Below are positions 6,171 to 64,000 of a stretch of DNA of 64,000 nucleotides, in pieces. Under the pieces are notes generated by a model that was not told where the DNA came from, searched no databases, and saw only the letters and a program-made list of their open reading frames with translations. The position numbers and the translations under genes are program-made. Position 1 is the stretch's first letter, and the number at the start of each line of letters is the position of its first letter. The stretch is taken from positions 6,171 through 70,170 of the forward strand of contig JAYUJN010000001.1 in assembly GCA_043765195.1 (NCBI GenBank), read 5' to 3'. The stretch comes from Bacteroidota bacterium (GTDB lineage Bacteria > Bacteroidota > Bacteroidia > UBA7662 > JAYUJN01).

Positions 6171-6178
6171 CAAAGGTA
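6171..6178 (-). promoter_or_regulatory. -7 promoter box for serC
   Basis: The reverse strand reads TACCTTTG (TAnnTTTG). The serC ATG lies 26 nt downstream. Confidence 0.45.
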
Positions 6179-11985: not shown

Positions 11986-12061
11986 CGGTGAATTAAGCGT
12001 TGTTTTCATCGTTTTAAAACACAAAAAAGTTATAGAAAACATAGATTTTTACCCATAAAAA

Positions 12062-12742
12062 ATGAACCAAAGTTTGGCACACATCGCCATAGTAGTGGAC
12101 GATTACGACAAAGCAATAGAATTTTATACCCAAAAATTGCATTTTAGGCTGACCGAGGATACCGTTTTGTCGGACACAAAAAGGTGGGTTTTGGTTACAC
12201 CACAAGGCGCAAGCGAATGTTCGCTGTTGCTGGCAAAAGCTGCGACCGAGGCACAAAAAAGCAGCATTGGCAACCAAACGGGCGGGCGGGTTTTCCTTTT
12301 TTTGCACACCGATAATTTTAAAAGAGATTATCAAAACCTGCTCGACCACAAAATTAAAATAATAAGAGAGCCATCAACCGAAACGCATGGCACGGTAGCT
12401 GTTTTTGAAGACATTTTTGGCAATTTGTGGGACTTGATAGAACCCGTTAAGACCCAAAATTTGTATTGTTCCACAGCCATTTTGAAAATAAAAGACCAAG
12501 AGAAAGTAGAACTTGTAAAAAGCGAACTTGCAAAACTCAAAGCGCAAACGATTATGGAAAAAGGAAACAAAACCTTTGACATTCATCAATCAAAAGAAGA
12601 CGAGACAAAAATAATTATTTGGGAGTGTTTCCTGAGCGAAAATGCGTTTAAAGAACATTTGGCTTCAAAGCACTTTCAGCATTTCTTTAGCCTGCACTTG
12701 GTAGAAATGGAAACTGCGCACACCACCAACAAAATTTTGTAG
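12062..12742 (+). CDS. VOC (glyoxalase/bleomycin-resistance fold) domain fused to an ABM-like (antibiotic biosynthesis monooxygenase-type) domain
   Basis: The first ~128 aa (LAHIAIVVDDYDKAIEFYTQKLHF ... FGNLWDLIEP) look like a VOC domain. The C-terminal ~95 aa (ILKIKDQEKVELVKSEL ... IIIWECFLSENAFKEHLASKHFQHF) look like an ABM ferredoxin-like domain. Confidence 0.6.
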   Translation: MNQSLAHIAIVVDDYDKAIEFYTQKLHFRLTEDTVLSDTKRWVLVTPQGASECSLLLAKAATEAQKSSIGNQTGGRVFLFLHTDNFKRDYQNLLDHKIKIIREPSTETHGTVAVFEDIFGNLWDLIEPVKTQNLYCSTAILKIKDQEKVELVKSELAKLKAQTIMEKGNKTFDIHQSKEDETKIIIWECFLSENAFKEHLASKHFQHFFSLHLVEMETAHTTNKIL

Positions 12743-12760
12743 TAGAACCAATAAAGCACA

Positions 12761-13129
12761 ATGGCACTAAAAATAATTTACATCGCAAACATAATTGTAG
12801 CAGGCTGGATAAGCCTCACTTCAATTTTCAACCCAAAACACTCGGCTGTTTCGGTTTTTCAAAACGCCTACCAGCCCACAGAAGTAATTAGGCTCGTGGG
12901 TTGTTTGTGGTTAGCCATCGCCGTTTTATCGGTTTTGGGGCTTTGGCGACCTGTTTCCTTTTCACCAATTTTGTTGGTGCAGCTCATTTACAAAGGAACT
13001 TGGCTTTTGGTGGTGGCACTTCCAGCCATAAAAAACAACCAACCCTATCCATCGGGCATGGCGGGTTTTTTTCTGGTTTGGTGTTTGGTTTTGCCATTCG
13101 TTATTCCGTGGGCGGAGTGGACGAAATGA
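12761..13129 (+). CDS. small integral membrane protein (about four hydrophobic segments), function unknown
   Basis: 122-aa ORF with hydrophobic stretches (IIYIANIIVAGWISL, LVGCLWLAIAVLSVLGL, LLVVALPAI, FFLVWCLVLPFVI). It starts 18 nt after the preceding gene. Confidence 0.5.
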   Translation: MALKIIYIANIIVAGWISLTSIFNPKHSAVSVFQNAYQPTEVIRLVGCLWLAIAVLSVLGLWRPVSFSPILLVQLIYKGTWLLVVALPAIKNNQPYPSGMAGFFLVWCLVLPFVIPWAEWTK

Positions 13130-13206
13130 TGGTTTTCGGGAGGTGTGGAAAGCGTAGTAAAGATGTATTTTTACTTTTTGATTTACACAAATCTCCCCCC
13201 AAACCC

Positions 13207-13809
13207 CTAATACAAAAACGGCAGGCGTGCCGTTAGGCTTCTGCCCAGCGTAATTTCGTCGGCGTATTCCAGCTCGCCGCCTATGGCTATGCCCCGAGCT
13301 ATGGTACTTAGTTTTATGGGCATACTTTTTAGGCGTTTGCTTATGTAAAAAGCCGTGGTATCGCCGTCCATGGTGGCGCTAAGTGCCAAAATAACCTCTT
13401 GCACCGAGCCACTTTTTATGCGTTCTATCAGGCTATCTATGTTTAGTTGGGCTGCGCCCACGCCCTCCATGGGTACTATAAGCCCGCCCAGCACGTGGTA
13501 CACGCCCCTAAACTGCCCCGTGTTTTCGAGTGCAATCACATCACGCATATCGGCTACCACGCACAGCGTATTTTGGTCTCGGGCGTGGCTGCTGCATATC
13601 CCACAAATCGGCGTATCGCTTAAGTTGTGGCAGGTGCTGCACCTCAAAATCTTTTCTTTCAGCACCGATATGGCATCGCAGAGCTGCTGCGCCACAGTGT
13701 CGGCTTGGGGTTGTAGTAGGTGCAGGGTAAGGCGCAAGGCGGTTTTTTTGCCAATGCCAGGCAGCCTACTAAATGCGTTTACGGTATCTTCTATGAGCTT
13801 TGGGGTCAA
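13207..13809 (-). CDS. recR: recombination protein RecR
   Basis: HhH motif LPGIGKKTALRL, C4 zinc finger CSTCHNLSDTPICGIC, Toprim region. 200 aa. Confidence 0.95.
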   Translation of the reverse strand: MTPKLIEDTVNAFSRLPGIGKKTALRLTLHLLQPQADTVAQQLCDAISVLKEKILRCSTCHNLSDTPICGICSSHARDQNTLCVVADMRDVIALENTGQFRGVYHVLGGLIVPMEGVGAAQLNIDSLIERIKSGSVQEVILALSATMDGDTTAFYISKRLKSMPIKLSTIARGIAIGGELEYADEITLGRSLTARLPFLY

Positions 13810-48289: not shown

Positions 48290-51200
48290 ATGCAAAATGC
48301 CACGCCTTACCAGCCAAAAAACCATATAAGAATTGTTACGGCTGCCGCCCTCTTCGACGGGCACGATGCCGCCATAAACATCATGCGGCGCATCATGCAA
48401 AGCTCGGGCGCAGAGGTAATACACCTTGGGCATAACCGCTCGGTGCAAGAAATAGTAGCCTGCGCCGTACAAGAAGATGCGCAAGCGATAGCCATTACTT
48501 CGTACCAAGGCGGACATACCGAAACCCTAAAATATATGTACGACCTGCTAAAAGAACAGGGCGCAGCGCATATAAAAATATTTGGCGGCGGCGGCGGTAC
48601 TATATTGCCCAGCGAAATAGCCGAGCTGCATAGCTATGGCATTACCCGCATATACAGCCCCGACGATGGGCGCAGCATGGGCTTACAAGGCATGATAAAC
48701 GACTTGCTGCAACAAGCGGATTTTGCACTGGATTATACTGGCTTGCACACCAATACCAACGACAAAAAAAATGTGGCTCGGCTTATATCGTGTGCCGAAA
48801 ACGAACCCGAGCAGTTTTTGGAACTGAAAAAAAACCTACAACCCAATGCCACAAAAACACCGATATTGGGCATTACAGGCACGGGCGGTGCGGGCAAAAG
48901 TAGCTTGGTAGATGAGCTTATTCGGCGGTTTTTGATGGATTTTGACGATAAAACGCTCGCCATTATTTCGGTGGACCCGAGCAAGCGCAAAACGGGCGGC
49001 GCACTGCTCGGCGACAGAATACGCATGAACGCCATAAGCCCCGAGCTGGCTGGCACACGCATTTATATGCGCTCGCTCGCCACCCGCCAAAGCAACCTTG
49101 CCCTAAGTAAATACGTGCAAGATGCCTTAGATGTGGTAGCCGCAGCGGGTTTCGACCTTATTATACTCGAAACTTCGGGCATTGGGCAAAGCGACACCGA
49201 AATTATAGAGCATAGCCACGCCAGCCTTTATGTAATGACCCCAGAATACGGGGCGGCTACGCAGCTCGAAAAAATAGATATGCTCGACTTTGCCGACGTA
49301 ATAGCCCTAAATAAGTTTGACAAACGGGGCGGGCTGGACGCATTGCGTGATGTGAAAAAACAATACCAACGCAACCACAACCGCTGGGAGGAGGATTTAG
49401 ATGTGATGCCTGTGTTTGGTACGATAGCTTCGCAGTTTAATGACCCAGGCGTGAATAATTTGTACCACGCCATACTCAAAAAAATAACGGAGAAAACGGG
49501 TGCCGATTTTAGTACGTCTCATTTTTTGGGCAGCCAAGCCCAAAGCGAAAAAATTTATATTATTCCGCCGCAGCGCACACGCTATTTAGCCGAAATTACC
49601 GAAAAAATACAGGGCTACAACCAACAAACGGTAACACAAAGCCAGATAGCCGACCAACTTTTTGCGCTGACCGAAACCATAAAAATACTGGGCGCAGACC
49701 ACACCAGCGACGATGTGGCAACGAAGCTGCAAAAAAAGTTTGAGACCATACAAAAAGACCTAAATCCGCACCACTGGGACATACTGCAAAACTGGCAAAA
49801 AACGCTGAATAACTATAAGGGCGATGAGTTTGTGTACCAAGTGCGGGGCAAGGACATTAGGGTGCAAACCCGCAGCCGGAGCCTGTCGAACCTAAGCATA
49901 CCTCGGGTGGCTGTGCCTCGCTATACGAGCTGGGGCGACCAGCTTCGGTGGGCGTTGCAAGAGAATTTTGCGGGGGAGTTTCCATATACAGCGGGCGTTT
50001 TTCCGTTTAAACGGGAGGGCGAAGACCCCGCACGAATGTTTGCGGGCGAGGGCTGCCCCGAGCGCACCAACAAACGGTTTCACTACCTAAGCCTGGGTAT
50101 GCCCGCCAAGCGGTTGAGCACGGCTTTTGATAGCGTAACGCTTTATGGCGAAAACCCCGAGCTGCGACCCGATATTTATGGCAAAATAGGCAATGCGGGC
50201 GTGAGCATTTGCTGCCTGGACGATGCCAAAAAACTGTACTCGGGCTTTGATCTCTGCGACCCAAAAACCTCGGTGAGCATGACCATAAACGGACCTGCAC
50301 CGATGCTGCTGGCTTTTTTTATGAATGCCGCCATAGACCAACAATGCGAAAAATACATTGTGGCGCATGACCTGACGCACCTCGTAAACCAAAAACTGAC
50401 CGAAAAATACGACCAAAAAAACCTGCCACGCCCCCAATACAACAGCCAGCCGCTGCCCGAGGGAAACAACGGGTTGGGCTTGCTGCTGCTGGGCATTACG
50501 GGCGATGAAATACTGGAACCCGCCATTTACCAAAAAATAAAAAGTGATGCCATGAGCCAAGTGCGTGGCACGGTGCAAGCCGATATTTTGAAGGAAGACC
50601 AAGCCCAAAATACGTGTATTTTTAGCACCGAATTTGCGCTTAGGCTCATGGGCGACGTGCAAGCGTTTTTTATTGAGAACCAAATAAGGAACTTTTATTC
50701 GGTGAGTATATCGGGTTACCACATAGCCGAAGCGGGCGCAAACCCGATTACGCAGCTTGCTTTTACGCTGTCCAACGGGTTTACTTATGTGGAGTATTAT
50801 TTATCCAGGGGCTTGAATATCAATGACTTTGCGCCTAATTTGTCGTTCTTTTTTAGCAACGGAACCGACCCCGAGTACGCCGTGATAGGTAGGGTGGCGA
50901 GGCGTATATGGGCGAAGGCAATGAAGCTGAAATACGGCGCAAACGAGCGCAGCCAAATGCTGAAATACCACATACAAACGTCGGGGCGCAGCCTGCACGC
51001 CCAAGAAATAGATTTTAACGACATACGAACCACGCTGCAAGCGCTGTATGCCATATACGACAACTGCAACAGCCTGCACACCAATGCCTACGACGAAGCC
51101 ATAACCACGCCCACCGAGGAAAGCGTGCGCCGTGCCATGGCTATACAACTGATTATAAATAAGGAACTTGGCTTGGCAAAAAACGAAAACCCGATGCAGG

Positions 51201-51664
51201 GAGCATTTATAAACGACGAGCTAACGGACTTGGTGGAGGAAGCCGTGATTTTGGAGTTTAACCGCATATCGGAGCGGGGCGGCGTGCTGGGCGCAATGGA
51301 AAATATGTACCAGCGCAACAAAATACAAGAGGAAAGTATGCACTACGAAATGAAAAAACACACGGGCGAGCTGCCGATTATAGGCGTAAATACTTTTTTG
51401 AACAGCAAAGGCTCGCCCACCATACTGCCGCAAGAGGTAATAAGAGCCACCCAAGAAGAAAAGCAATGGCAGCTAAATACCGTAGCCAACCTGCACCAAA
51501 CCCACGCCCAAAAACTACAAGCGGGCTTAGAAAAATTGCAGGAGGCAGCCCTAAAAAACCAAAATATATTTGACTATTTAATGGAGCTAAGTCAGTTTTG
51601 TAGCCTCGGGCAAATGACCAACGCCCTGTACGCCGTAGGCGGGCAATACAGGCGGAATATGTAG
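48290..51664 (+). CDS. icmF: fused isobutyryl-CoA mutase (B12-binding domain + MeaB-like GTPase + mutase barrel), IcmF
   Basis: B12-binding DxHxxG ([10 protein letters not shown]), P-loop [17 protein letters not shown], and a long methylmalonyl-CoA-mutase-family C-terminal domain. Start moved to [16 protein letters not shown]. Confidence 0.9.
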
Positions 51665-51989
51665 GGAGTGGGGGGAAGGCATAATGTCAGTTTGGTAAAA
51701 TAGTTTTTTATTAAAAACAATATTTGTTGTTTCTGTTTTTTTTGTATATTTACAAAGTTGGATTATTTCATTATATTGCTCTTGTCAAGCCCCAAAACGT
51801 TAGCGGTCATTTTAAAATAGAACCGCACACCAAAAGTGGAAGAAACTACAAAATTGAGAAAAACAGAACAAATTCATAAATGACGATGAAAAATTTAAGA
51901 CCACTAAAGTCATTGAAAAACAATACATTATGAAATGTTTCCTTTATTTATGAGGGAAACATAAATACTTTTGAATAAAAATTGAAAAT

Positions 51990-53000
51990 ATGAAAGATTT
52001 GACCGTTTCGGCTATTGACCGACAAAACATAATTAATAATAAAAAAGCAGTACAGAATATACAAACTTATTTGGGTGTTACTGGTATGCTTTTTCAAGGT
52101 GAGTATAAATTTACACGACAACAAATTATAGAATTTTACGCTATAGACAATTCAACCATAGATAGATATTTATCTCAAAACCAAGAAGAATTAAAACATA
52201 ATGGTTATGTAAATCTAAAAGGGAAAGCACTTAAAGAATTTAAAGATGAATTTGGTTGGATGTTGCAGGAGGGAGCTAAGGCTCCGCAACTTGGCATTTT
52301 CAATTTTCGTTCATTTTTAAATTTGGGAATGCTGCTAACAGAGAGTGAAAAAGCTAAAGCATTAAGGAGTAAAATATTGGATATTGTAATTGACACTCTT
52401 AACCAAAAGTTAGGTGGCTCAACAAAGTATATTAACCAGCGTGAAGAAGATTTTTTAATTGCAATGGCTCGTGAGCCCGTTTATAGAAAAGAATTTACTG
52501 AAGCATTAAATAAATATTTGGAAATGGGGAACTATAAATATGCTGTTTATACCGATGCTATTTATAAAGCCATTTTTCTTGAAAAATCAGCTGAATATAA
52601 AGTGATTTTGAAGTTAGAAGAAAAAGAAAATATGAGGGACACAATGTATTCTGAGGTTCTTCGGTTGATTGCTTCGTTTGAAGTAGGAATAGCAGATGCA
52701 ATGAAGTTAAAATCTGAAAAACTGAATAGGAAACTGCAACCACCAGAATTAGATGAATTGATAGACGAATTTTCAAAACAACGATTTTGGACACCACAAA
52801 TTGAAGATGCAAGAAGCAAAATGGCAAGCCGAGATTATGGTTTAAGGAATATTATTCATGAAAGGTTAAAACCCTATATCAATTCACTAAATGCAGTGGA
52901 TTATGACAGATTTTTAGGAGATAAAAGTAAAGACCTTATACAAAGAGTAACAGAAAATCCTGACCTATTAGATGTTTTCAAACGATTAAAAGACCGATAA
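51990..53000 (+). CDS. hypothetical DNA-binding-like protein, 336 aa (possibly distant RhuM-like), upstream partner of Doc
   Basis: N-terminal HTH-like stretch KFTRQQIIEFYAIDNSTIDRYLSQNQEEL followed by a long helical region. Its stop TAA is separated from the doc ATG by a single nucleotide. The RhuM resemblance is weak and from memory only. Confidence 0.5.
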   Translation: MKDLTVSAIDRQNIINNKKAVQNIQTYLGVTGMLFQGEYKFTRQQIIEFYAIDNSTIDRYLSQNQEELKHNGYVNLKGKALKEFKDEFGWMLQEGAKAPQLGIFNFRSFLNLGMLLTESEKAKALRSKILDIVIDTLNQKLGGSTKYINQREEDFLIAMAREPVYRKEFTEALNKYLEMGNYKYAVYTDAIYKAIFLEKSAEYKVILKLEEKENMRDTMYSEVLRLIASFEVGIADAMKLKSEKLNRKLQPPELDELIDEFSKQRFWTPQIEDARSKMASRDYGLRNIIHERLKPYINSLNAVDYDRFLGDKSKDLIQRVTENPDLLDVFKRLKDR

Positions 53001-53001
53001 C

Positions 53002-53448
53002 ATGGCATTTGCATATTTTGATACTGCTCGTGCTATAACGATGCACGACGAAATAATAAATCAATCAGGTGGGTCGTTAGGCATTTTGAATATAGGCTTA
53101 TTAGAGAGTGTTATAGAGCATATTCAAAATGATTTTTATTATCCAAAATTTGAACACAAACTTACGCACCTATTCTTTTCAATTAATAAAAATCACAGCT
53201 TTCAAGATGGAAATAAAAGAGCTTCAATTGCATTGTCTGCTTATTTTTTGGAAATCAATAATTGTTCATTTAAAACAGAACAATTTATAGCTGAAATGGA
53301 AAACGTAGCAGTGGATGTAGCAGACAACAGAATTGATAAAGATTTGCTTTTTGAAATAATCCATTCAATAATTTACGAAGACGATTACACCGAAGAATTA
53401 AAATTGAAAATAATTTATGCCAAGGGATTTGATAACGAAGACCAATAA
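53002..53448 (+). CDS. doc: Fic/Doc-family toxin (death-on-curing type)
   Basis: Fic motif HSFQDGNKRAS (53194-53226) and N-terminal HDEIINQSGG, typical of Doc. 148 aa. Confidence 0.8.
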   Translation: MAFAYFDTARAITMHDEIINQSGGSLGILNIGLLESVIEHIQNDFYYPKFEHKLTHLFFSINKNHSFQDGNKRASIALSAYFLEINNCSFKTEQFIAEMENVAVDVADNRIDKDLLFEIIHSIIYEDDYTEELKLKIIYAKGFDNEDQ

Positions 53449-53670
53449 TCTTACAATTCAACAGCCCCCCCAACTCCAACATTTCCCCTCCACCCACACT
53501 CTGCGCTCCGCCCTGTGTTTCTAACAAAAGTTTTTTGGTGCGGTTGAAAATTACTTGCGTTTTTATTGTTTTTTTGCTTAATTTTGGGCTTGAAAATATG
53601 CTATAATTTGCGCCTTTTTGCAGTTTATAGCCCAAACCCACCACCTACGACCAAACCTAACGCCTACGCT

Positions 53671-55590
53671 ATGAGCCTATTAGTAAAAACATTTAGCCTA
53701 TTTACGGACTTTGATGCCAATTTGTTCAAATCGGGCAAGCACTTTAAATTATACGAAAAACTCGGCTCGCACATCGTAACCCACGACGGCGAAACGGGCG
53801 TTTACTTCGCCGTGTGGGCACCCAACGCCAAAAATGTAAGCGTTATCGGCAACTTTAACCACTGGCAGCCCTACCAGCACAACCTCTGCGCCCGCTGGGA
53901 CGGCACGGGCATCTGGGAGGGTTTTGTGCCACGCCTCGGCAAGGGCGAAGTGTATAAATACCACATTCACAGCCAACACAGCGATTTGCGCTTAGAAAAA
54001 GCCGATCCCTTTGCCTTTATGTGGGAAGTGCCGCCCAGCACCGCATCTATCGTTTGGGATTTGGATTACAAATGGAAAGACAAAAAATGGCTGGCTGCCC
54101 GCCTCAAAAAAAATGCGCTCGACCAACCATTTTCCGTGTATGAAATGCACATAGCCTCGTGGCGGCGCAAGCTCGACGAGGGCAATCGGTCGTTTACCTA
54201 CTTAGAGCTTGCCAAAGAACTGGTGGCGTACCTAAAAGCCATGCACTTTACGCACGTGGAGTTTTTGCCCGTAATGGAGCACCCCTACGGTCCGAGCTGG
54301 GGCTACCAGAGCTTGGGCTACTTCGCACCCTCGAGCCGTTTTGGCACGCCCCAAGAGTTTATGCAGCTCGTAGATGCGCTGCATGAGGCGGGCATCGGCG
54401 TTATTTTAGACTGGGTGCCCTCGCATTTCCCAGGCGATGCCCACGGCATACACAAGTTCGACGGCACCAGCCTCTACGAACACGAAGACCCCCGCCAAGG
54501 CTACCACCCCGACTGGAACTCCTGGATATTTAACTACGGGCGCAACGAAGTGCGCAGTTTTTTAATAAGCAGCGCAGGCTTTTGGTGCGATTTGTACCAT
54601 GCCGACGGGCTACGGGTAGATGCCGTAGCCTCCATGCTCTACCTCGATTATTCACGCAAAGAGGGCGAATGGATACCCAACCAATACGGCGGCAGAGAAA
54701 ACTTAGAAGCCATTTCGCTGCTCAAAGAACTAAACGAATACCTCTACACCAGTTTTGAAGGCATACAAACCATCGCCGAAGAAAGCACGGCGTTCCCCAT
54801 GATTTCTCGCCCCGTGTATTTGGGCGGGTTGGGTTTTGGCATGAAATGGATGATGGGCTGGATGAACGACACCCTCCAATACTTTAAACGAGACCCATAT
54901 TACCGCCAATACCACCAAGGCGAAATCACATTTAGCCTCGTGTACGCATTCACCGAAAATTTTATGCTGCCCTTTTCCCACGACGAAGTGGTGCACGGCA
55001 AAGGCTCGCTACTAAGCCGTATGCCTGGCGATGCGTGGCAAAAGTACGCCAATCTCAGGCTGCTGTACGCCTATATGTTTTCGCACCCAGGCACCAAGCT
55101 CATATTTATGGGCTGCGAGTTTGGGCAATTTACCGAGTGGAGCCACGAGGGGCAGCTACCCTGGGAACTCACCCACCAACCCAACAACCAAGGCATTCAA
55201 AAGCTATTTGCGGAGCTAAACAGGCTATATACAACCGAAAAAGCGTTTTTTGAGCTGCAATTTTCGCCCGAGGGCTTCGAGTGGATAGACCACAGCGACA
55301 CCCAAAACAGCATAATTAGCTACGTGCGAAAAAGCAAAAACGGCAAAGACCAAATAATGGTAATATGCAACCTAACGACCATACCACGAAACAATTATAG
55401 ATTGGGCGCAACCAAAGCAGGCACGTGGCAGCAAATACTAAACACCGACGACCTTGCCTACGGTGGCAGCCAATACCAAATAGCGCCCCAAGCCAAAACC
55501 GAAGCCATAGAAAGCCACGGCAAAGCGCAATCGGTGCTGCTAAACCTACCGCCGCTCGGTGTAATTATGCTCAAACACAGCAAAGGATAA
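53671..55590 (+). CDS. glgB: 1,4-alpha-glucan branching enzyme
   Basis: GH13 motifs HADGLRVDAVASMLY, IAEESTAFP and LPFSHDEVVHGK. Start moved to ATG 53671 (MSLLVKTFSLFTDFD); the 35 upstream codons of the track ORF look non-coding. Confidence 0.9.
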   Translation: MSLLVKTFSLFTDFDANLFKSGKHFKLYEKLGSHIVTHDGETGVYFAVWAPNAKNVSVIGNFNHWQPYQHNLCARWDGTGIWEGFVPRLGKGEVYKYHIHSQHSDLRLEKADPFAFMWEVPPSTASIVWDLDYKWKDKKWLAARLKKNALDQPFSVYEMHIASWRRKLDEGNRSFTYLELAKELVAYLKAMHFTHVEFLPVMEHPYGPSWGYQSLGYFAPSSRFGTPQEFMQLVDALHEAGIGVILDWVPSHFPGDAHGIHKFDGTSLYEHEDPRQGYHPDWNSWIFNYGRNEVRSFLISSAGFWCDLYHADGLRVDAVASMLYLDYSRKEGEWIPNQYGGRENLEAISLLKELNEYLYTSFEGIQTIAEESTAFPMISRPVYLGGLGFGMKWMMGWMNDTLQYFKRDPYYRQYHQGEITFSLVYAFTENFMLPFSHDEVVHGKGSLLSRMPGDAWQKYANLRLLYAYMFSHPGTKLIFMGCEFGQFTEWSHEGQLPWELTHQPNNQGIQKLFAELNRLYTTEKAFFELQFSPEGFEWIDHSDTQNSIISYVRKSKNGKDQIMVICNLTTIPRNNYRLGATKAGTWQQILNTDDLAYGGSQYQIAPQAKTEAIESHGKAQSVLLNLPPLGVIMLKHSKG

Positions 55591-55622
55591 AAAGCTGGTT
55601 TACACCAAGCCCAAAAACCAAT
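55492..55622 (+). repeat. copy A of a direct repeat (functional 3' end of glgB plus ~30 nt downstream)
   Basis: 55495-55590 aligns without gaps to 58159-58254 (88 of 96 nt identical). Weaker, gapped similarity continues about 30 nt past the stop. Confidence 0.8.
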
Positions 55623-55697
55623 TTTGCCAAAAAAATATTCTTGCTTTGTTTCATTTGCCCCAAACACCTACAACACAGGCATTTGGGGTAAATTCTC

Positions 55698-57878
55698 TTA
55701 ATTCAGTTCCTCAAAATGCACCTGCCCAGTAGCAATGTCGTGGTAGGCGCTTATAATGCCAATCTCTTTGTGGTCTATTCTGTGCTTCAAATACGGGCTT
55801 TGCTCCAATATTTCTTTCACCGAATTGTTGGCATTTTGTTTGGTCGTTTTTTCCATGAGTTCATCTTCGCTGGCGTTTTCAGGTTTTGGGTAGCAACCAC
55901 ATTCGGCGGCTACCTTCTGAATTTTTGAGGTAACGGTATGAATGTTGTCGTCCATTACATTGGCTAACGAAAGCGCCACAGCACCGCAGCTCGAATGCCC
56001 TTTTACCACAATTAGTTTTGCGCCCAGTTTTTTTACCGCAATTTCCAAGCTCCCAATTATTTCGGGGTTTATAATGTTGCCCGCAATGCGAACGGTCAAT
56101 AAATCGCCCAAATTTGCATCAAACAATATTTCGGGCGAGGTTCTGCTATCGATGCAGCTAACCAAAACCGCCATCGGGTTTTGCCCCATAGAAGTAGCTT
56201 TTACCTGATGCAAATAGTGTTTGTCGGTGCCGTTTCCATCTACAAAGCGTTTGTTGCCTGCTTTTAGCAACTCCAAAGCGTCCAGTGGTTTTAGTTTTTG
56301 TTGGGTTTCTTTGTCCAACACATTTATAAACTGTACGTTGTCTTTTAAATTATATTGCCCTTTTATGCCAAGCAAATTCAACTGAATGTTTCTTTCGGGC
56401 GCAATGGTGGTTTTAAAATCGTCTATTATTTCACGCACATCATTGTCTATAAAATTGGCGTAGGTAGCATCTATCACCACTTTTGAGCCTTTGGGTATGC
56501 TCCAAAGCGTTTCTTTTATGGTTGCTTTGTTCAAAAATGAGGTTTGGTTGGGCAGCTCCAATTTTATAACCTGACCGATGTTCAGTTTGCTTTCGTTTCT
56601 TAAAAATGGGTTTTTAAAATTGCTCCTTAGTATGTAAAACACCGCAGTAGCCAAACCTATGATTACGCCGATTAATAAATCGGTAAAAACGATTGCCAAA
56701 ATAGTGATGACAAAAGGCACAAACTGCGGTCTGCCTTTTTGGTACATTTCTTTAAACAAAGATATTTTGGTTAGTTTATAACCCGTCATAAGCAGTATGG
56801 CAGCCAGCGATGCCAAAGGAATTTGGTTTAATAATGCACTTAAAAACAACACAAAAACCAACAAAAATGCGCCGTGCAATATCGCCGAAAGTTTGGTTTG
56901 GTTGCCCGCCTGCACATTTACAGAGCTACGAACAATTACCGAAGTTACGGGCAAACCGCCCAGCAATCCCGCCATCATGTTGCCTATGCCTTGCGCCACC
57001 AATTCGGTGTTTGGGGGCGAGTTTCTTTTGTGCGGGTCCAGTTTATCTACGGCTTCGATGTTTAGCAGTGTTTCCAGCGATGCCACAATGGCGAGCGTAA
57101 GCGCCACGAGCCAAACTTGGTAGTTCGATAGGTTGGTTAGGTTGGGTAAATGAAAATAGCCCGATAGGTTGTTGGTATCAATGGCTGGAATGTTTACCAA
57201 GTGGGATTGTTGAACGGCTAAAAAAGGCACAAAATTCGTAAAAATATAATTTAAAAACACCCCAAATATAACCACAAACAAAGATGCTGGCAACAGTTTT
57301 ACATTTTTTAGTGGCGTTTTGTCCCAAAAAAGGATTACCAAAATGGATAGTAAACTTATGGCAATTGCGCCTGGGGTAATGTGGTTTAGGGCATTTAATA
57401 TTTCCGAAAAACTGTTTTCGCCATCAACCTGAAAAAAGGCACTTTCGCCCTCGGGGTCTTTGTCGTAACCCAAGGCGTGCGGTATTTGCTTGATAATCAA
57501 CAAGATGCCAATAGATGCCAAAAGCCCTTTAATTACATTTGAGGGTACAAAGTTGGCTACCAAACCTGCTTTGGCTATGCCCAGCAGTAACTGAATAATG
57601 CCTGCCAAAAATACCGCAGTTAGAAACACCTCGAACGAACCGAGCTTTGTGATTGAGGCGAGTACCACGGCGGCAAGCCCAGCGGCGGGTCCGCTCACGC
57701 TTGTTTGCGATTGGCTTATAAACCCCACCACAATGCCACCAATGACCCCAGAAATGATGCCCGAAAGTAGCGGTGCGCCCGATGCCAAGGCGATGCCCAA
57801 GCACAGCGGAATTGCTACCAGAAATACAACGATACTGGCTGGTAAGTCGCTTTTGATGTTTCCGAATAATTTTTTCAT
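55698..57878 (-). CDS. SulP-family anion transporter fused to STAS-like region and C-terminal beta-carbonic anhydrase
   Basis: SulP membrane domain, STAS-like segment (IKLELPNQTSFLNKATIKE ... VVIDATYANFID). The C-terminal ~200 aa carry beta-CA motifs VSCIDSRTSPE and KGHSSCGAV. Confidence 0.85.
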   Translation of the reverse strand: MKKLFGNIKSDLPASIVVFLVAIPLCLGIALASGAPLLSGIISGVIGGIVVGFISQSQTSVSGPAAGLAAVVLASITKLGSFEVFLTAVFLAGIIQLLLGIAKAGLVANFVPSNVIKGLLASIGILLIIKQIPHALGYDKDPEGESAFFQVDGENSFSEILNALNHITPGAIAISLLSILVILFWDKTPLKNVKLLPASLFVVIFGVFLNYIFTNFVPFLAVQQSHLVNIPAIDTNNLSGYFHLPNLTNLSNYQVWLVALTLAIVASLETLLNIEAVDKLDPHKRNSPPNTELVAQGIGNMMAGLLGGLPVTSVIVRSSVNVQAGNQTKLSAILHGAFLLVFVLFLSALLNQIPLASLAAILLMTGYKLTKISLFKEMYQKGRPQFVPFVITILAIVFTDLLIGVIIGLATAVFYILRSNFKNPFLRNESKLNIGQVIKLELPNQTSFLNKATIKETLWSIPKGSKVVIDATYANFIDNDVREIIDDFKTTIAPERNIQLNLLGIKGQYNLKDNVQFINVLDKETQQKLKPLDALELLKAGNKRFVDGNGTDKHYLHQVKATSMGQNPMAVLVSCIDSRTSPEILFDANLGDLLTVRIAGNIINPEIIGSLEIAVKKLGAKLIVVKGHSSCGAVALSLANVMDDNIHTVTSKIQKVAAECGCYPKPENASEDELMEKTTKQNANNSVKEILEQSPYLKHRIDHKEIGIISAYHDIATGQVHFEELN

Positions 57879-57925
57879 TTATAAATTTTAGTAAAATATG
57901 GTGTTTTGCCTTTATTTTTGGCATA

Positions 57926-57933
57926 CAAATATA
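57926..57933 (-). promoter_or_regulatory. -7 promoter box for the SulP-CA gene
   Basis: The reverse strand reads TATATTTG. The ATG lies 48 nt downstream. Confidence 0.4.
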
Positions 57934-58155
57934 AGCTAAAATGGTGGAAAATCAAGCCGTGTTCAAAGTTTTATCTGTATTTTGGCTAAAAAGAAATTGA
58001 ATATAAAGAGTTTTAACAATTTGTAAATTAAGTGGTTAATTGTTTTTGGGTAATTGTGTTGGGTGTTTAAAATATACAAAAGCCGTGATGCAGCTAAGTT
58101 GGTTTTGGGTGTGAAACACATTGCCACAAAAGCTCAAAACCCAACATAAAAGCCA

Positions 58156-58254
58156 GCTAAAACCGAAGCCATAGAAAGCCATGGCAAAGCACAATCGGTG
58201 CTGCTAAACCTACCGCCGCCGGGTGTAACTATGCTCAAACATAGCAAGGGTTAA
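58156..58254 (+). pseudogene. orphan 3' fragment of a glgB gene (copy B of the direct repeat)
   Basis: Translates in frame as (A)KTEAIESHGKAQSVLLNLPPPGVTMLKHSKG*, versus KTEAIESHGKAQSVLLNLPPLGVIMLKHSKG* for the real glgB end. An in-frame TAA at 58147-58149 truncates it upstream, and no start codon is present. Confidence 0.75.
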
Positions 58255-58388
58255 AAGCTGTTTTTATACAAAACAACCGAAAAAACCAACAAAAGCTAAA
58301 AATGCGATTGAGTTTAGAAACTTTGTTAAATTGTTAAAATGTCTATGTGTTCTGCGCCCTTGCACCCAAAACCATAAAATATCGGCAT

Positions 58389-58396
58389 TATATTTG
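58389..58396 (+). promoter_or_regulatory. -7 promoter box for the 146-aa ORF / SulP-Dab operon
   Basis: TATATTTG. ATG 58421 lies 25 nt downstream. Confidence 0.4.
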
Positions 58397-58420
58397 TTGC
58401 TCTAACAAAAATGGGCAACA

Positions 58421-58861
58421 ATGCCCAAAATCAAGTGTTCAACCAACACAAAAAGTAGTTTACAAATGCAAGGCGCACAAAGAAAATTCTTATTTTTTGC
58501 TTTATTCACAGCTCTCTGCTGCTTTACCCAAGTGTTTTATTTGGGTAGCAACAAGCAAGCCGCTGTGCATAGCACCCAAATAAATGAGGTTAGCCAGCTC
58601 GTAAGCCACGCACCCAACTCGGACGTAAAAACGACCGAACTCGACTTTAAAAAGCCACAAATTTTTATAGAGGAAACTGCGCAAGACGATACCAGCGCTC
58701 CCGAAAAAAACTTTGGTGGCTCTAACCAACTTTTTAATGGTAGCAAAAACGAATTTGGCGCACATTTAAGCCAAATTTTTACTAATTTCTTTGCTATTTT
58801 AGGTATCTCTACCATAGTTCCACTTTACTTGCTTTACAACAAGTTAAAGGTTTTTTGTTAA
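58421..58861 (+). CDS. hypothetical protein with N-terminal and C-terminal hydrophobic segments (146 aa)
   Basis: ORF begins 25 nt after a perfect -7 box. It has an N-terminal hydrophobic stretch FLFFALFTALCCF and a C-terminal stretch FFAILGISTIVPLYLLY. No family recognised. Confidence 0.4.
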   Translation: MPKIKCSTNTKSSLQMQGAQRKFLFFALFTALCCFTQVFYLGSNKQAAVHSTQINEVSQLVSHAPNSDVKTTELDFKKPQIFIEETAQDDTSAPEKNFGGSNQLFNGSKNEFGAHLSQIFTNFFAILGISTIVPLYLLYNKLKVFC

Positions 58862-58924
58862 TTAATTTACGGCAATAAAATTACTCCAAAAGTAATTTGG
58901 GCTACCACCAAGGCATACCCCACA

Positions 58925-58968
58925 GCACGCTCGCACATTTTGTTTGCGCAGAGCCGTGCGTATTTTTT
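58925..58968 (+). terminator. imperfect GC hairpin followed by a T-run, upstream of the SulP start (terminator or attenuator-like)
   Basis: GCACGCTCGC (58925-58934) pairs with bulges to GCGCAGAGCCGTGC (58946-58959), then TATTTTTT (58961-58968). It lies 35 nt upstream of ATG 59003. Confidence 0.3.
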
Positions 58969-59002
58969 ACAAATCGTAACCAAAAAATTAATTAATCGAA
59001 CA

Positions 59003-60598
59003 ATGAACAATCAAAAAAACTACCCTGTCGATGGTTTCGCAGGCTTAAAACAAAATATTTCTACCGATGCCATTTCTGGCTTCATCGTATTTTTACTGGC
59101 ATTGCCCCTAAGTTTGGGTATCGCCAAGGCATCAGAGTTTCCGCCGCTCATGGGGCTGCTCACAGCCATGATAGGCGGGTTGGTGGTGAGCCTAATTTCT
59201 GGCTCATTGCTTACCATAAAAGGACCAGCCGCAGGGCTTATCGTAATTGTAGCTGGTGCCGTAACCGATTTTGGCGGCGGCGATACTGGCTGGCACCTTG
59301 CGCTGGGCGCTATGGTGGTGGCTGGCTTGATACAAATTTTATTTGGCGTGCTTAAATTAGGGCGATTCTCTGATTTTTTTCCGTTGGCTGCCATACACGG
59401 TATGCTGGCTGCCATAGGCATTATAATTGTAGCCAAACAAGTACCAGTGCTTATGGGCGTGAACCCCGCACTAACCAAGGGCAAAGCACCGCTGGAACTG
59501 CTGGCAAATATCCCCAATTTTATAACGCACCTAAACCCAACGGCTACGCTTATTGGCGTGGTTAGTTTGGTTATTATGATGGGTTTGCCGATGATAAAAA
59601 ACAAATTTGTGAAAAAAATACCAGGTTCGCTCCTCGTACTTATGGTAGCCATACCCGCAGCTTTATTTCTACAATTTAAAACCACCCAGCCCGCTTACAC
59701 ACTCGTAAAAATAGGCAACTTACTGGACAATATAAAAATAAACGTAGATTTTTCGGGCATACACCAAATGGGTACTTTTGTAAAATACGTAATTATGTTT
59801 GCGCTGGTGGGTACGCTCGAGTCGTTGCTTACCGTAAAAGCCATAGACATGATGGACCCCCACAAACGCAAATCCAACACCAACAAAGACATTATAGCCA
59901 TAGGTGTAGGCAACGTAATATCGGCAATATTGGGCGGTTTACCCATGATTTCGGAGGTAGCACGTAGCTCGTCCAACGTAAACAACGGCGCAAAAACCAG
60001 GTGGGCAAACTTTTTTCACGGGTTTTTTATCTTAGTATTTGTGCTTTTTGCAGCCCCACTCATAGAAATGATACCCAACGCCGCTTTGGCAGCCATGCTT
60101 ATAAGCGTGGGCATAAAATTGGCGCACCCAAAAGAGTTTATCCACGTGTTTAAAATCGGAAAAGAACAATTAGCCATATTTTTAGTAACCATTTTCTTTA
60201 CTTTATCCCAAGATTTATTGGTAGGCATCGCCGCAGGTATTGCCCTAAAAATGATTGTACACGTGATAAACGGCGCACCCATCAGCTCTTTGTTCAAAGC
60301 CGTGGTATCTATCTCATCGCACGAAGATGATTATTTGGTAGAAATAGAACAATCGGCGATATTCAGCAATTTTATAGGCATAAAAAGCCAATTGGAGAGC
60401 ATACCACACGGCAAAAACTTGACCATAAACCTTTCCAAAGCCAAACTAATAGACCACTCGGTGATGGAAAACCTGTACCATTTTCAGGAGGATTACATAG
60501 CCGAAGGTTATAGGTGCGTGCTCGAGGGCATACAAAACCACAGACCACTGTCGGCGCACGAGCTGGCTGCCAGAAAAATAACCCGCCTAACCGTTTAA
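59003..60598 (+). CDS. SulP-family anion transporter with C-terminal STAS domain (BicA-like architecture)
   Basis: Start moved to ATG 59003 (MNNQKNYPVDGFAGLKQNI). SulP membrane core and STAS-like C-terminus (YLVEIEQSAIFSNFIGIKSQLESIP ... LSKAKLIDHSVMENL). Confidence 0.85.
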   Translation: MNNQKNYPVDGFAGLKQNISTDAISGFIVFLLALPLSLGIAKASEFPPLMGLLTAMIGGLVVSLISGSLLTIKGPAAGLIVIVAGAVTDFGGGDTGWHLALGAMVVAGLIQILFGVLKLGRFSDFFPLAAIHGMLAAIGIIIVAKQVPVLMGVNPALTKGKAPLELLANIPNFITHLNPTATLIGVVSLVIMMGLPMIKNKFVKKIPGSLLVLMVAIPAALFLQFKTTQPAYTLVKIGNLLDNIKINVDFSGIHQMGTFVKYVIMFALVGTLESLLTVKAIDMMDPHKRKSNTNKDIIAIGVGNVISAILGGLPMISEVARSSSNVNNGAKTRWANFFHGFFILVFVLFAAPLIEMIPNAALAAMLISVGIKLAHPKEFIHVFKIGKEQLAIFLVTIFFTLSQDLLVGIAAGIALKMIVHVINGAPISSLFKAVVSISSHEDDYLVEIEQSAIFSNFIGIKSQLESIPHGKNLTINLSKAKLIDHSVMENLYHFQEDYIAEGYRCVLEGIQNHRPLSAHELAARKITRLTV

Positions 60599-60612
60599 AC
60601 GACACTAATAAA

Positions 60613-61377
60613 ATGAAATATTTCAAAATAATAATAGTAGCCGCCCTTGTATGTATGAGCGGCTACACCGCCCAAGCCCAGCGCAACACAGTAATAAACA
60701 ACAATGCGTGGCTGGTATATAACGGCGACCACAAAGTAAGCGATAAGTGGGGCGTTCACTTAGAAATGCAAGTGCGCCGCAACGAGCTGCTATCGAAACC
60801 CATGCAGCTACTGCCAAGGGTGGGCATTAACTATTACTTCAATCCGCAAGTAATGGCTACGGCTGGCTACGCCTACGTAGAAACCGACCCCTACGGCAAG
60901 TTTCCAGTAACCACCAAGTTTGGGGAGAGCCGTGCTTGGGAGCAAATACAGATAAAAAACCAGTTTAATAGGGTGGAGCAAGTAAACAGAATACGCCTCG
61001 AGCAGCGGTTTGTAAACCTGCCCGTTCGCTCGGCAACCGACGGCACGTACAAGCCCGGACCAGCCGTTTATTCCAACCGCATACGCCTACAAAACAGGAT
61101 AGCCGTGCCTTTAAACGGAAAAACGATTGTAGATAAATCGGTGTACGTTACGGCTGCCGACGAAATATTTGTGAATTTTGGTAAGAATGTAGGCAAAAAT
61201 ATTTTTGACCAAAACCGTGCCTACGCCGCCATAGGCTACAAAGTACCCAAACTGGGTAGGGTAGAGGCTGGCTATCTGTGGCAGGTAATAGCCAAATCGG
61301 ACGGCATACGCATAGAGAGCAACTACACGCTGCAAGTGGGCATTTTTTCTACCATCGATTTTTATAAAAAAAAGTAA
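60613..61377 (+). CDS. DUF2490-like protein with signal peptide (predicted beta-rich, possibly outer-membrane)
   Basis: Start moved to ATG 60613 (MKYFKIIIVAALVCMSGYTAQAQ). NNNAWLVYNGDHKVSDKWGVHLEMQVRRN matches my recollection of DUF2490. Its stop TAA is directly followed by the dabA ATG. Confidence 0.6.
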   Translation: MKYFKIIIVAALVCMSGYTAQAQRNTVINNNAWLVYNGDHKVSDKWGVHLEMQVRRNELLSKPMQLLPRVGINYYFNPQVMATAGYAYVETDPYGKFPVTTKFGESRAWEQIQIKNQFNRVEQVNRIRLEQRFVNLPVRSATDGTYKPGPAVYSNRIRLQNRIAVPLNGKTIVDKSVYVTAADEIFVNFGKNVGKNIFDQNRAYAAIGYKVPKLGRVEAGYLWQVIAKSDGIRIESNYTLQVGIFSTIDFYKKK

Positions 61378-63939
61378 ATGAACACGCACACACAAACCGA
61401 TAACACGTTCGATGCGCACGAAGTGCTGCACGAACTGGCGCACTATTTGCCCTCGCAAACGCCCATAAAAGACTTTATACACCACAACTCGCTGCACGCT
61501 TTTCAGGATATGAAGTTTTTTGATGCCATTTTTAAAGCCTCAAAAATATTTGGCTACCAAGCTACTTTGCAGCTCGCCGATTATAGAACCATGTATGAGC
61601 AAGGGCGCATTAGCCCCGAGGTACTAAACAGGCTTATTTTGGACAAAAAAGGTGTGGCGCAGCTCATTAACTGGCAACAAAAACTACTAAGCCAAACCTA
61701 TAATGTAGAAAGCGATGCCAGAATAGGCACATTGCGCCAAAACTGGAAAAAGCACTACAAAATAGACATGGACACAATGGTTCACCCTACTTTGTTTCGG
61801 ATACTTTGTAGCTATTTGGACCAAGGCATCGCCATTTGGGATTTTCCTACCAACGGAAAAGGCTTGATAGCGGGCTTAAAAACGCTGGAAAAAAACAGTT
61901 TTACCAGTTTTTTTAAAACCAAAACGGCTCGCAAGCTATTGCTATCCGATGACTGCACCATAGAATCGTTGCTTAAAATGGTGGTGGGCAACCCCAGCTA
62001 CTACAAACAATATTTGTACGACCAGCAGTTTGCGCACAGAGGCTGGTCGGGCATGGCGGCTACCTTAGAGCATAGCCCAGATACCTTGCTCAGTCCCAAA
62101 AAAATAACGCTGGAAGAGGTAGTGCTGCTCGACCTTTTGCTGGAAATAGACAACCTAACCTACAAATTTGGCGTGGGCAACTGGCAGCCACTGGCGGAGT
62201 ACCTAACCGAGCCGCCGATGGAGTTGCTGGATAGCGTGCCGCCCACGGAGCTGCAAGAGGTATATGAACTGTGGCAAAAAGCCTTTGAGTGGAGCTACTA
62301 CGACCAAGTACTGTCGGGCATAAGTGCCTTAAAAGACAAAAAAAGTAGGGAATTGCCGCAAAAAGAAGCGTACCAAAAAAGTTTTCAAGCCATATTTTGT
62401 ATAGATGAGCGAGAATGCTCCTTGCGCCGCCACGTGGAGCAGTTAGATACCGAATGCGAAACGCTGGGTATGCCAGGGTTTTTTGGGGTGGAGTTTTATT
62501 TTCAGGCAGAAAACGCCAAGTTTTACGACAAAATGGCACCTGCGCCCGTTACGCCTCGTTTTCTTATAAAAGAGCAAAACAACAACAAATCACGCCCGCA
62601 CGAGGCTTTTTATAATTCTAAGGCGCACACGCTTTTGGGCGGATATTTGGCATCGTTCACCTTTGGTTTTTGGGCTATTGGAAAGCTAATACGCAACTTG
62701 TACGCACCCAAAATGACACCCGCCATTTCCAATGCTTTTGCGCACATGCACAAATACTCGAGCCTGAGCATAGAAAACAAAGACGTAAACGACCAAGAAA
62801 ACGGGCTGCAAATAGGCTTTACCACCACCGAAATGGCGGATAGGGTAGAGGGCGCACTGCGCAACATTGGGCTTATAAAAAACTTTGCGCCGCTTATATA
62901 TTTGGTATCGCATGGGGCAAGTACAGCCAACAACCCGCACCACGGCGCATACGATTGTGGTGCGTGCAGCGGCAGACCAGGCTCTGTGAACTCAAAAGTG
63001 ATGGCATTTATGGCGAACCACCCCAAGGTAAGGGAAATATTGGTGCAAAGAGGCATAACGATACCAGATACTACGCAGTTTTTGGGGGCGATGCACGATA
63101 CTTCTGCCGACGAAATGCAGTTTTATGAATTAGATGCGCTCACAACCGTAAACCAAGAAGCACACAAAAACAATGAAATAACGTTTGAAAATGCTTTAAA
63201 TTACAACGCAAAAGAACGCTCTCGCAGGTTTGCCTCCATAGATACCAAAGGTAGCTTGGTAAAAGTACGCCAAAAAATAAAAGAGCGCTCGGTGTCGTTT
63301 TTTGAGCCACGCCCAGAGCTTGGGCACGGCACCAATGCCCTGTGTATTATAGGCAACCGCAGTTTTACCAAGGGTTTGTTTTTGGATAGGCGTGCGTTTA
63401 TGAACTCCTACGACTACAAAACCGACCCCGAGGGCAAGCTCTTACTGGGTGTGATGCGCCCCATAGGTCCGGTTTGCGGCGGTATAAACTTGGAGTACTA
63501 TTTTTCGAGGGTAGATAACTATAAGCTGGGGGCGGGTACTAAGCTCTCGCACAATGTAATGGGGCTTATTGGTGTAGCCAACAGCAGCGACGGCGACCTA
63601 CGCCCAGGCTTGCCCATACAAATGGTAGAAGTGCACGACCCCGTGCGCCTAATGGTAATAGTGGAGCATAGCCCCGAAATAGTACTAAAAGCAATAAACA
63701 CCCAAGCCGATACCTACCAGTGGTTTCAAAACGAGTGGGTGCATTTGGTGGCGGCTTGCCCTGTAACGAACAAGTATTTTTACTTTAAAAATGACCAGTT
63801 TCAGGAATATAAGCCAGGCTTTGTAGAAATACAAAACAAAAAAAACATGATTGACCTCATAGAATCGGCTAAACTAATGAAATCCAATAAAATAGTAGAT
63901 TCTACCAAAGAAAACCTCCCAATCCACATTTTACAATAA
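61378..63939 (+). CDS. dabA: DUF2309-family protein, inorganic carbon pump subunit DabA
   Basis: 853 aa. IKDFIHHNSLHAF. Beta-CA-like zinc site residues are conserved in the same spacing as described for DabA: FCIDERE (Cys341, Asp343; 62398-62406), His512 (62911-62913) and YDCGAC (Cys527, Cys530; 62956-62967). Confidence 0.85.
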   Translation: MNTHTQTDNTFDAHEVLHELAHYLPSQTPIKDFIHHNSLHAFQDMKFFDAIFKASKIFGYQATLQLADYRTMYEQGRISPEVLNRLILDKKGVAQLINWQQKLLSQTYNVESDARIGTLRQNWKKHYKIDMDTMVHPTLFRILCSYLDQGIAIWDFPTNGKGLIAGLKTLEKNSFTSFFKTKTARKLLLSDDCTIESLLKMVVGNPSYYKQYLYDQQFAHRGWSGMAATLEHSPDTLLSPKKITLEEVVLLDLLLEIDNLTYKFGVGNWQPLAEYLTEPPMELLDSVPPTELQEVYELWQKAFEWSYYDQVLSGISALKDKKSRELPQKEAYQKSFQAIFCIDERECSLRRHVEQLDTECETLGMPGFFGVEFYFQAENAKFYDKMAPAPVTPRFLIKEQNNNKSRPHEAFYNSKAHTLLGGYLASFTFGFWAIGKLIRNLYAPKMTPAISNAFAHMHKYSSLSIENKDVNDQENGLQIGFTTTEMADRVEGALRNIGLIKNFAPLIYLVSHGASTANNPHHGAYDCGACSGRPGSVNSKVMAFMANHPKVREILVQRGITIPDTTQFLGAMHDTSADEMQFYELDALTTVNQEAHKNNEITFENALNYNAKERSRRFASIDTKGSLVKVRQKIKERSVSFFEPRPELGHGTNALCIIGNRSFTKGLFLDRRAFMNSYDYKTDPEGKLLLGVMRPIGPVCGGINLEYYFSRVDNYKLGAGTKLSHNVMGLIGVANSSDGDLRPGLPIQMVEVHDPVRLMVIVEHSPEIVLKAINTQADTYQWFQNEWVHLVAACPVTNKYFYFKNDQFQEYKPGFVEIQNKKNMIDLIESAKLMKSNKIVDSTKENLPIHILQ

Positions 63940-63945
63940 ATTATT

Positions 63946-64000
63946 ATGCAACAGATACTTGCTCTTTTTATACTTATTCCATTGCTGGGGCTTATAATAA
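63946..64000 (+). CDS. dabB: start of NuoL/Mrp-like membrane subunit, probable DabB (partial, runs off the right edge)
   Basis: ATG lies 6 nt after the dabA stop. It reads MQQILALFILIPLLGLII, the hydrophobic N-terminus typical of NuoL-like proteins. Assignment rests mainly on context. Confidence 0.5.
   Translation, partial: MQQILALFILIPLLGLII

Follow-up and report, generated by a model that had tools for sequence, protein, structure and literature searches.

We found that a gene encoding a SulP-beta-carbonic anhydrase fusion (SulP-CA) in a Bacteroidota bacterium lies in a 2.55-kb module inserted beside glgB, and that this module is bracketed by a direct repeat of the glgB 3′ end. The locus is part of a stretch of 64,000 nucleotides (nt) of contig JAYUJN010000001.1 (assembly GCA_043765195.1, forward-strand positions 6,171 to 70,170), which we call the window and to whose first letter all positions refer. 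The left repeat copy (copy A) is the end of glgB itself and the right copy (copy B) is a fragment beyond the module. From 58255 onward lies the region upstream of an operon for inorganic-carbon uptake, SulP/DUF2490/DabA/DabB (dab operon).

The evidence for the insertion comes from sister strains. A public protein collection holds the window's GlgB as an exact protein (P0121) and two relatives, which are 99% (P0001) and 80% (P0002) identical in amino acids. P0001 is encoded on two metagenome contigs, L111 (59.8 kb) and L112, with allelic variants on L114 and L124, and these contigs share with the window the gene order patatin, ParB, ParA, OMP_b-brl_2 beta-barrel, icmF, glgB, SulP, DUF2490, DabA and DabB. 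Sister-strain homology to the window stops at 55601, at a junction reading GCTGGTTT followed by ACACC, and resumes at 58253 (Table 1), and all four contigs lack SulP-CA and have the coding end of glgB only once. Furthermore, the sequence that follows the glgB stop in the sister strains is the one that follows copy B in the window, which identifies the SulP-CA module as the inserted part. At the level of sequence, the comparison confirms the original prediction that the module was inserted next to glgB, and none of the four contigs without SulP-CA carries both repeat copies. A check proposed with it was whether such relatives pass directly from glgB to the sequence at 58255; this is so for the post-stop sequence itself, but a different 1.5-kb cassette intervenes and no empty site was found among the relatives.

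A repeat search of the window returned a 102-nt direct repeat (55491-55592 and 58155-58256) with 91% identity and a spacing of 2664 nt. Local and codon-by-codon alignment of its coding part gave 88 identical positions out of 96, with no indel, over the last 31 codons and the stop; the glgB TAA is kept in copy B at 58252-58254. Seven codons differ, five of them synonymously (His, Ala, His, Lys, Gly) and two not (CTC to CCG, Leu to Pro; ATT to ACT, Ile to Thr). Homology continues for 11 nt past the stop (55591-55601 and 58255-58264, with a 1-nt indel within a run of A), which gives a full extent of 111 nt for copy A (55491-55601) and 110 nt for copy B (58155-58264). At the right junction (58150-58158), AAGCC is common to both copies and is followed in copy B by a 4-nt filler, AGCT. 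All the figures first reported for the coding part, together with the in-frame TAA upstream of copy B, were reproduced. The looser similarity reported for about 30 nt past the stops holds for the first 11 nt and not beyond, and homology at about 30-45 nt past the copy A stop was rejected because 35% of the other A-rich segments of the window score equally well against the same sequence.

Copy A is 97.5-98% identical to the corresponding segment of the sister strains. Copy B has the properties of a pseudogene fragment: it lacks a reading frame upstream, has acquired damaging substitutions and evolves at a neutral rate. Its Leu to Pro change sits in an LPPL motif, a motif also present in an unrelated high-GC glgB. 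We also considered the repeat as a terminator or known RNA and rejected this, as Rfam gave no match for the repeat and insert region and no stable fold was obtained for the native sequence past the stop (-3.7 kcal/mol, z -0.5).

The source genome is a metagenome-assembled draft of 59 contigs with 83% completeness, a circumstance in which an assembly artefact or a chance similarity has to be considered. However, the exact SulP-CA protein is encoded on contigs from five further assemblies (L115-L119; four ENA metagenome assemblies and one Logan assembly), obtained from different samples and with different assemblers, and both repeat copies are 100% identical to the window wherever these contigs reach. 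All contigs with the window's exact glgB show the same neighbours, and a diverged second haplotype (L125) has the same junction. The repeat is not low-complexity sequence: it has two copies in the whole 2.45-Mb assembly, the second with E=1.4e-36 and the next best match with E=0.07. Collectively, the genome-wide E value, the five assemblies and the second haplotype rule out an artefact or chance, whose probability we regard as negligible.

The sister strains have filled the same spacer in another way. In L111 the two aligned blocks are separated by 1.5 kb holding two plus-strand open reading frames (ORFs) of 190 and 270 amino acids. The glgB stop is followed by AAAAGCTGGTTTTGTACAAAAACAACCGAAAAATAGCCAAAAAA, and the same 45 nt recur directly after the cassette with 95.6% identity, the right repeat leading on to the sequence found in the window after copy B. 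The left junction of this cassette lies in a run of A, and only short homologies are present at the junctions of both cassettes. These alignments show the spacer between glgB and the dab operon as a recurrent insertion site with long target duplications, whose length is 111 nt in the window type and 45 nt in the L111 type. A gene pair in another organism (L121/L122), in a different context, is 83% identical in nucleotides to the L111 cassette, over a span that runs from about 10 nt before the first ATG of the cassette to about 15 nt after its last stop; no repeat-like sequence was found at that other locus.

Some further observations concern this spacer. At L122 738-3275 the homologous pair follows an Sbt_1-family (SbtA-like bicarbonate transporter) gene, and the L111 pair itself (12031-13420) gave weak Pfam hints only (DUF6978, DUF1828) and no PADLOC match; both fillings of the spacer may be linked to inorganic-carbon uptake. 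In the sister strains a perfect palindrome of 16 nt, GTTTTTGTACAAAAAC (L111 13533-13548), lies just past the ancestral glgB stop; the window has a degenerate form of it, GTTTTTATACAAAAC, at 58260-58274. Palindromes resembling TTTTTGTACAAAAA are found at several further sites of the genome and could be a protein-binding site. Beyond the sister strains the GTDB species representatives offered no close relative (best glgB 66% amino acid identical), the source genome being the only member of its family among the representatives searched. When metagenome contigs were scanned with a degenerate pattern of the repeat, the sole matches were two unrelated glgB genes with the conserved C-terminal motif.

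We consider the chances about even that an insertion independent of a recombinase, which duplicated its target, left the repeat as its scar, and that drift and allelic recombination came afterwards. In the reconstructed ancestor, the glgB stop would have been joined directly to the sequence now at 58255 onward. The 2.55-kb SulP-CA unit would then have entered 11 nt past the glgB stop, a position that the alignments show, by an illegitimate event that used short homology and no recombinase and that would have duplicated 111 nt of target. The left copy would have kept glgB whole, and copy B, being non-functional, would have drifted since. The duplication may persist because it let the insertion leave both glgB and the sequence before the dab operon intact. 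Later homologous recombination within the population would have shuffled the alleles of the flanks, which would account for the linkage of the final 26 nt of copy B to a divergent downstream haplotype. In favour of this account, copy B is 7% divergent between haplotypes that are 99.9-100% identical in the neighbouring SulP and DUF2490 genes.

The order of events could also be reversed, with SulP-CA ancestral and copy B the remnant of an old tandem duplication or rearrangement; the sister strains would then have deleted the segment between the repeats and gained their cassette afterwards. A recombination of copy A with copy B in the post-stop sequence that they share would recreate the exact glgB end of the sister strains, the G+C content of SulP-CA (43.2%) is near that of the genome (45.0%; the L111 cassette has 34%), and the arrangement is old enough to have two diverged haplotypes. 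Yet this history still needs an event that made the duplication and adds a loss step that nothing requires, and the 80% glgB relative (L113) has a penicillin-binding protein downstream and neither SulP-CA nor the dab operon. We find it highly improbable.

The differences between the copies bear on how the repeat arose. The excess of synonymous changes had originally been taken to suggest that one copy derives from a related but non-identical, xenologous glgB. We polarised the eight differences with four functional glgB alleles and two copy-B haplotypes, the second of them from L125, a second SulP-CA-type haplotype whose copy B has the same left junction (its positions 1-49, an Illumina adapter-like start ending in …GTGACTGGAGTTCAGACGTGTGCTCTTCCGATCT, were trimmed before comparison). 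Two differences are private to the window's dead copy (55518, synonymous His; 55556, Leu to Pro), two are polymorphic among functional alleles with copy B sharing one of the states (55527, Ala; 55557), and the remaining four are fixed differences of copy A from copy B (55565, Ile to Thr, and the synonymous 55578, 55584 and 55587), where copy B has ACT, CAT, AAG and GGT. In simulations, at least five synonymous codons out of seven had a P of 0.013-0.037 if all changes are neutral, and of 0.14-0.18 if copy A accepts only synonymous changes and copy B decays. Because decay of copy B with purifying selection on copy A gives the latter value, the synonymous excess alone proves nothing. A different signal, the clustering of the four fixed differences in the tail of the copies, takes its place, and xenology of one copy is neither proven nor excluded. 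The locus is thus a worked example of a misleading synonymous excess in a short repeat, in which a second haplotype and several functional alleles reassigned half of the differences.

The tails themselves hint at recombination. Copy A's tail and the following 11 nt match the sister-strain allele, and the tail of copy B abuts 58255-58420, which at 77% identity is the most divergent stretch between the window type and the L111 type. The copy B of L125 differs from that of the window at 7 of 100 nt, including a Ser to Pro and a Leu to Pro change, and lies in a patch (about 58099-58861) of 4.5-7% divergence between haplotypes that are otherwise 99-100% identical; this pattern appears recombination-like. 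The existence of two diverged SulP-CA-type haplotypes indicates that the arrangement has been in circulation long enough to diversify. Background divergence between the strain types is 2-3% and rises to 8-9% in pockets of neighbouring genes, which shows that divergent alleles do recombine in the population. The tails of copies A and B were probably contributed by two different alleles within one population, and the simplest reading of these hints is a recombination breakpoint inside the repeat or copy B, made by a Campbell-type crossover or by a later homologous exchange. We also considered that a functional glgB end, received from a strain with an empty site, had replaced copy B in one haplotype; this idea is weakened by the divergent patch, which starts about 56 nt upstream of copy B.

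A Campbell-type single crossover is essentially the recombination first proposed for this locus. Circularised DNA with about 111 nt of an allelic glgB end and SulP-CA would have integrated at glgB, leaving both copies as hybrids of resident and incoming sequence. A crossover near 55565/58229 fits well: the heads of the copies are identical apart from private changes, the tails differ at the four fixed sites (three of them synonymous), the tail of copy B is contiguous with the divergent downstream haplotype, the tail of copy A with its 11 nt resembles the sister allele, and the 8-9% pockets show that divergent alleles do recombine. However, the crossover requires circularisation and a donor in which the module already lay 11 nt past a glgB stop, which is more events than the short-homology insertion needs, and no such donor was found. 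Moreover, the 45-nt repeat of the sister strains is wholly non-coding, 95.6% identical, and resembles a plain local duplication. We therefore regard the single crossover as rather unlikely.

The donor search covered the closest SulP-CA proteins, which are 84% (L131, a 2.2-kb contig with almost no flank) and 79% (L126-L130) identical in amino acids. On L126-L130, which come from the same sample series, SulP-CA has a pair of ABC-transporter genes on one side and a DUF2490/RND-efflux cluster on the other, and glgB is absent from the vicinity. At the DNA level these homologues match the window in the gene only (73-78% identity) and not in the flanks, and the glgB relatives and SulP-CA homologues compared include no donor lineage for copy B or for SulP-CA. 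Among the species genomes compared, the best SulP-CA match (G037:C59:8726-10864, 64% amino acid identity) is from a different order, and genomes of the same order gave matches of only 47-54%, mostly to the SulP part alone.

Att-like (attachment-site-like) direct repeats, 55491-55601 and 58155-58264, flank the insert, and one of them overlaps the 3′ end of the target gene. No terminal inverted repeats were found at the insert ends by repeat search, and the insert has no transposase ORF; its 111-nt duplication compares with the 2-15 bp usual for insertion sequences and transposons. No tRNA lies within 50000-64000. A search with PF00589 (Phage_integrase) found no recombinase gene in or beside the insert, serine recombinases not being part of the search; its three matches in the genome fall on other contigs (C12, C37 and C40), not on C1.

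The duplications of the window type and the L111 type overlap in 12 nt, AAAAGCTGGTTT, which with two cassettes only can be a coincidence. If it is not, a recombinase acting in trans could have integrated both cassettes at this core as integrase-less, att-flanked cargo, each cassette carrying a different length of target-like sequence beside the core. Such cargo would resemble CIMEs, which are integrase-less cis-mobilizable elements, or degenerate tycheposons. Two unrelated cassettes at the same spot, each with direct repeats, have AAAAGCTGGTTT as the sole stretch common to both; three tyrosine recombinases are encoded elsewhere in the genome; and islands bounded by att sites, with partial target-gene copies, are well known (bioRxiv 10.1101/2020.12.28.424599). 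Against this, neither cassette nor the neighbourhood encodes a recombinase, the donor-like locus L122 has no core sequence at its ends, and three recombinases are about what housekeeping enzymes of the XerC/XerD type alone could explain. The putative core is also neither enriched nor island-associated elsewhere in the genome, and the post-stop motif was not found as a dispersed repeat. Integration by a trans-acting recombinase is in our view unlikely, and the more specific proposal that AAAAGCTGGTTT is an attachment site at which a recombinase encoded elsewhere in the genome inserts and exchanges integrase-less, tycheposon-like cargo cassettes, among them an inorganic-carbon uptake module, is very unlikely. 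If true, it would mean a cargo-shuttling system in uncultured Bacteroidota that targets the end of a protein gene before a dab operon.

Several points weigh against the short-homology insertion that we favour. The 12-nt overlap is explained just as well by a trans-acting site-specific recombinase, and we know of no documented bacterial one-step mechanism that gives target duplications of 45-111 nt. No contig among the public assemblies examined carries a truly empty site, so that the ancestral state is reconstructed and not observed. Furthermore, all four fixed differences are confined to the final 26 nt (P about 0.005 in a one-sided test, and 0.037 if a cluster at any position is counted), a pattern not expected of a duplicate that decays uniformly, so that recombination has to be added as a second step.

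Table 1. Features of the glgB-dab region in window coordinates, with identities to the second SulP-CA-type haplotype (L125) and to the sister-strain contig L111 (aa, amino acids).
Feature	Position	Strand	Identity to L125	Remarks
Left block aligned to L111	53476-55601			blastn to L111 9870-11994, 97.5% identity
glgB (1,4-alpha-glucan branching enzyme), 660 aa	53608-55590	+		intact; Pfam CBM_48, Alpha-amylase, Alpha-amylase_C; ATG as in public gene calls
Copy A	55491-55601	+		last 32 codons of functional glgB, stop, 11 nt beyond
Inserted module	55602-58154			no counterpart in L111, L112, L114, L124; alternatively drawn as 55491-58154
Hairpin, 12-13 bp	55653-55693			between convergent glgB and SulP-CA genes; belongs to insert
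SulP-STAS-beta-CA gene, 726 aa	55698-57878	-		Pfam Sulfate_transp PF00916 2.4e-60, Pro_CA PF00484 6.1e-32
SulP-CA upstream region, 276 nt, 30% GC	57879-58154	-		contains TAnnTTTG-type motif TATATTTG at 57926-57933
SulP-CA upstream region, part compared with L125	57989-58154		98.8%
In-frame TAA	58147-58149	+		severs copy B from any upstream reading frame (translation)
Copy B	58155-58264	+	93%	dead glgB 3′-end fragment, stop, 10 nt beyond
166 nt after copy B			94%
Conserved downstream block	58253-64000	+		blastn to L111 13525-19291, 95.4% identity
Variable small ORF	58421-58861	+	95.5%	downstream block
Segment between small ORF and second SulP	58862-59002		100%
Second SulP	59003-60598	+	99.9%	Pfam; downstream block
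DUF2490	60613-61377	+	100%	Pfam; downstream block
DabA	61378-63939	+		Pfam; downstream block

SulP-CA is the only gene, and the only ORF with a Pfam match, inside the insert, which measures 2.66 kb if copy A is included. Its product joins an N-terminal SulP permease and a C-terminal beta-carbonic anhydrase in one polypeptide, an architecture common to thousands of homologues, including full-length ones with both domains, and is predicted to be a bicarbonate transporter/carbonic anhydrase. The hairpin between the convergent genes folds on both strands (113-nt spacer, minimum free energy -24.9 kcal/mol on the plus and -32.5 kcal/mol on the minus strand, z about -2) and is terminator-like; it may act as a terminator. 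TAnnTTTG is the usual Bacteroidota -7 promoter consensus, and the region around TATATTTG upstream of SulP-CA is a putative promoter. With its hairpin, its gene and its own upstream region, the insert looks like a self-contained expression unit.

In the neighbourhood, the small ORF of the downstream block has 146 amino acids in the window, 131 in the public calls for L118 and L125 and 172 in the sister strains, has no family match, and may not be a real gene. The following SulP gene has two pockets (59242-59442 and 60142-60600) of 8-13% divergence from the sister strains against the 2-3% background, a pattern that suggests mosaic recombination with a more distant lineage. On the other side of glgB, the icmF-glgB spacer (51756-53475) holds an AT-rich (31% GC) two-gene cassette with ORFs at 51990-53000 and 53002-53448, which match the PADLOC candidate defence pair PDC-M59A (E=5e-112) and PDC-M59B (Fic/Doc, E=2e-29). 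The sister strains have, in place of this defence-like pair, ORFs of 164 and 284 amino acids that are unrelated to it (L111 7595-9869), and no direct repeats were found around the icmF-glgB cassette.

Taken together, these results give a base-pair view of how a strain of an uncultured Bacteroidota gained an extra gene for a predicted bicarbonate transporter/carbonic anhydrase beside a DAB-type carbon-uptake operon, while co-occurring sister strains filled the same spacer differently. Only if the site proved to be a true attachment site would they point to an element of a new kind. Campbell-type insertion-duplication is the textbook single-crossover integration of circular DNA, and the locus resembles it in the direct duplication around the insert and in copies that are possibly hybrids of two alleles, which fits the tail clustering; it differs in that the homology segment would be only about 111 nt and that no donor arrangement was found among the contigs compared.

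Some integrative elements enter the 3′ end of a gene and have a partial copy of that gene beside them, among them the tycheposons of Prochlorococcus with their degenerate cargo-only remnants (bioRxiv 10.1101/2020.12.28.424599). As in these elements, in tRNA-targeting islands and in CIMEs, nutrient-uptake cargo lies here between a full gene end and a displaced, direct partial copy, and sister strains carry different cargo at the same site. In contrast to them, no tyrosine recombinase, excisionase or replication gene is found in or beside either cassette; unlike in tRNA-targeting islands, the target is the end of a protein-coding gene; and the repeats differ in extent, 111 against 45 nt, with only 12 nt in common. 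Studies of transformation merodiploids and on homology-facilitated illegitimate recombination (PMC3784515, PMC3240628) describe recombinase-independent partial duplications or joining at short homologies. The duplications in those studies are much larger, or anchored in long homology, and nothing shows that the organism studied here is naturally transformable.

The locus also resembles strain-variable flexible genomic islets, which lie at fixed intergenic hot spots between conserved genes: unrelated small cassettes occupy the same spacer of co-occurring strains, between flanks that are, here, 95-98% conserved. The neighbouring icmF-glgB spacer behaves likewise, but its cassettes have no target duplication, whereas each cassette between glgB and the dab operon has a long one. 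The feature is of a kind already known, and the locus described here is a new, well-resolved instance of a fairly ordinary strain-variable insertion site.

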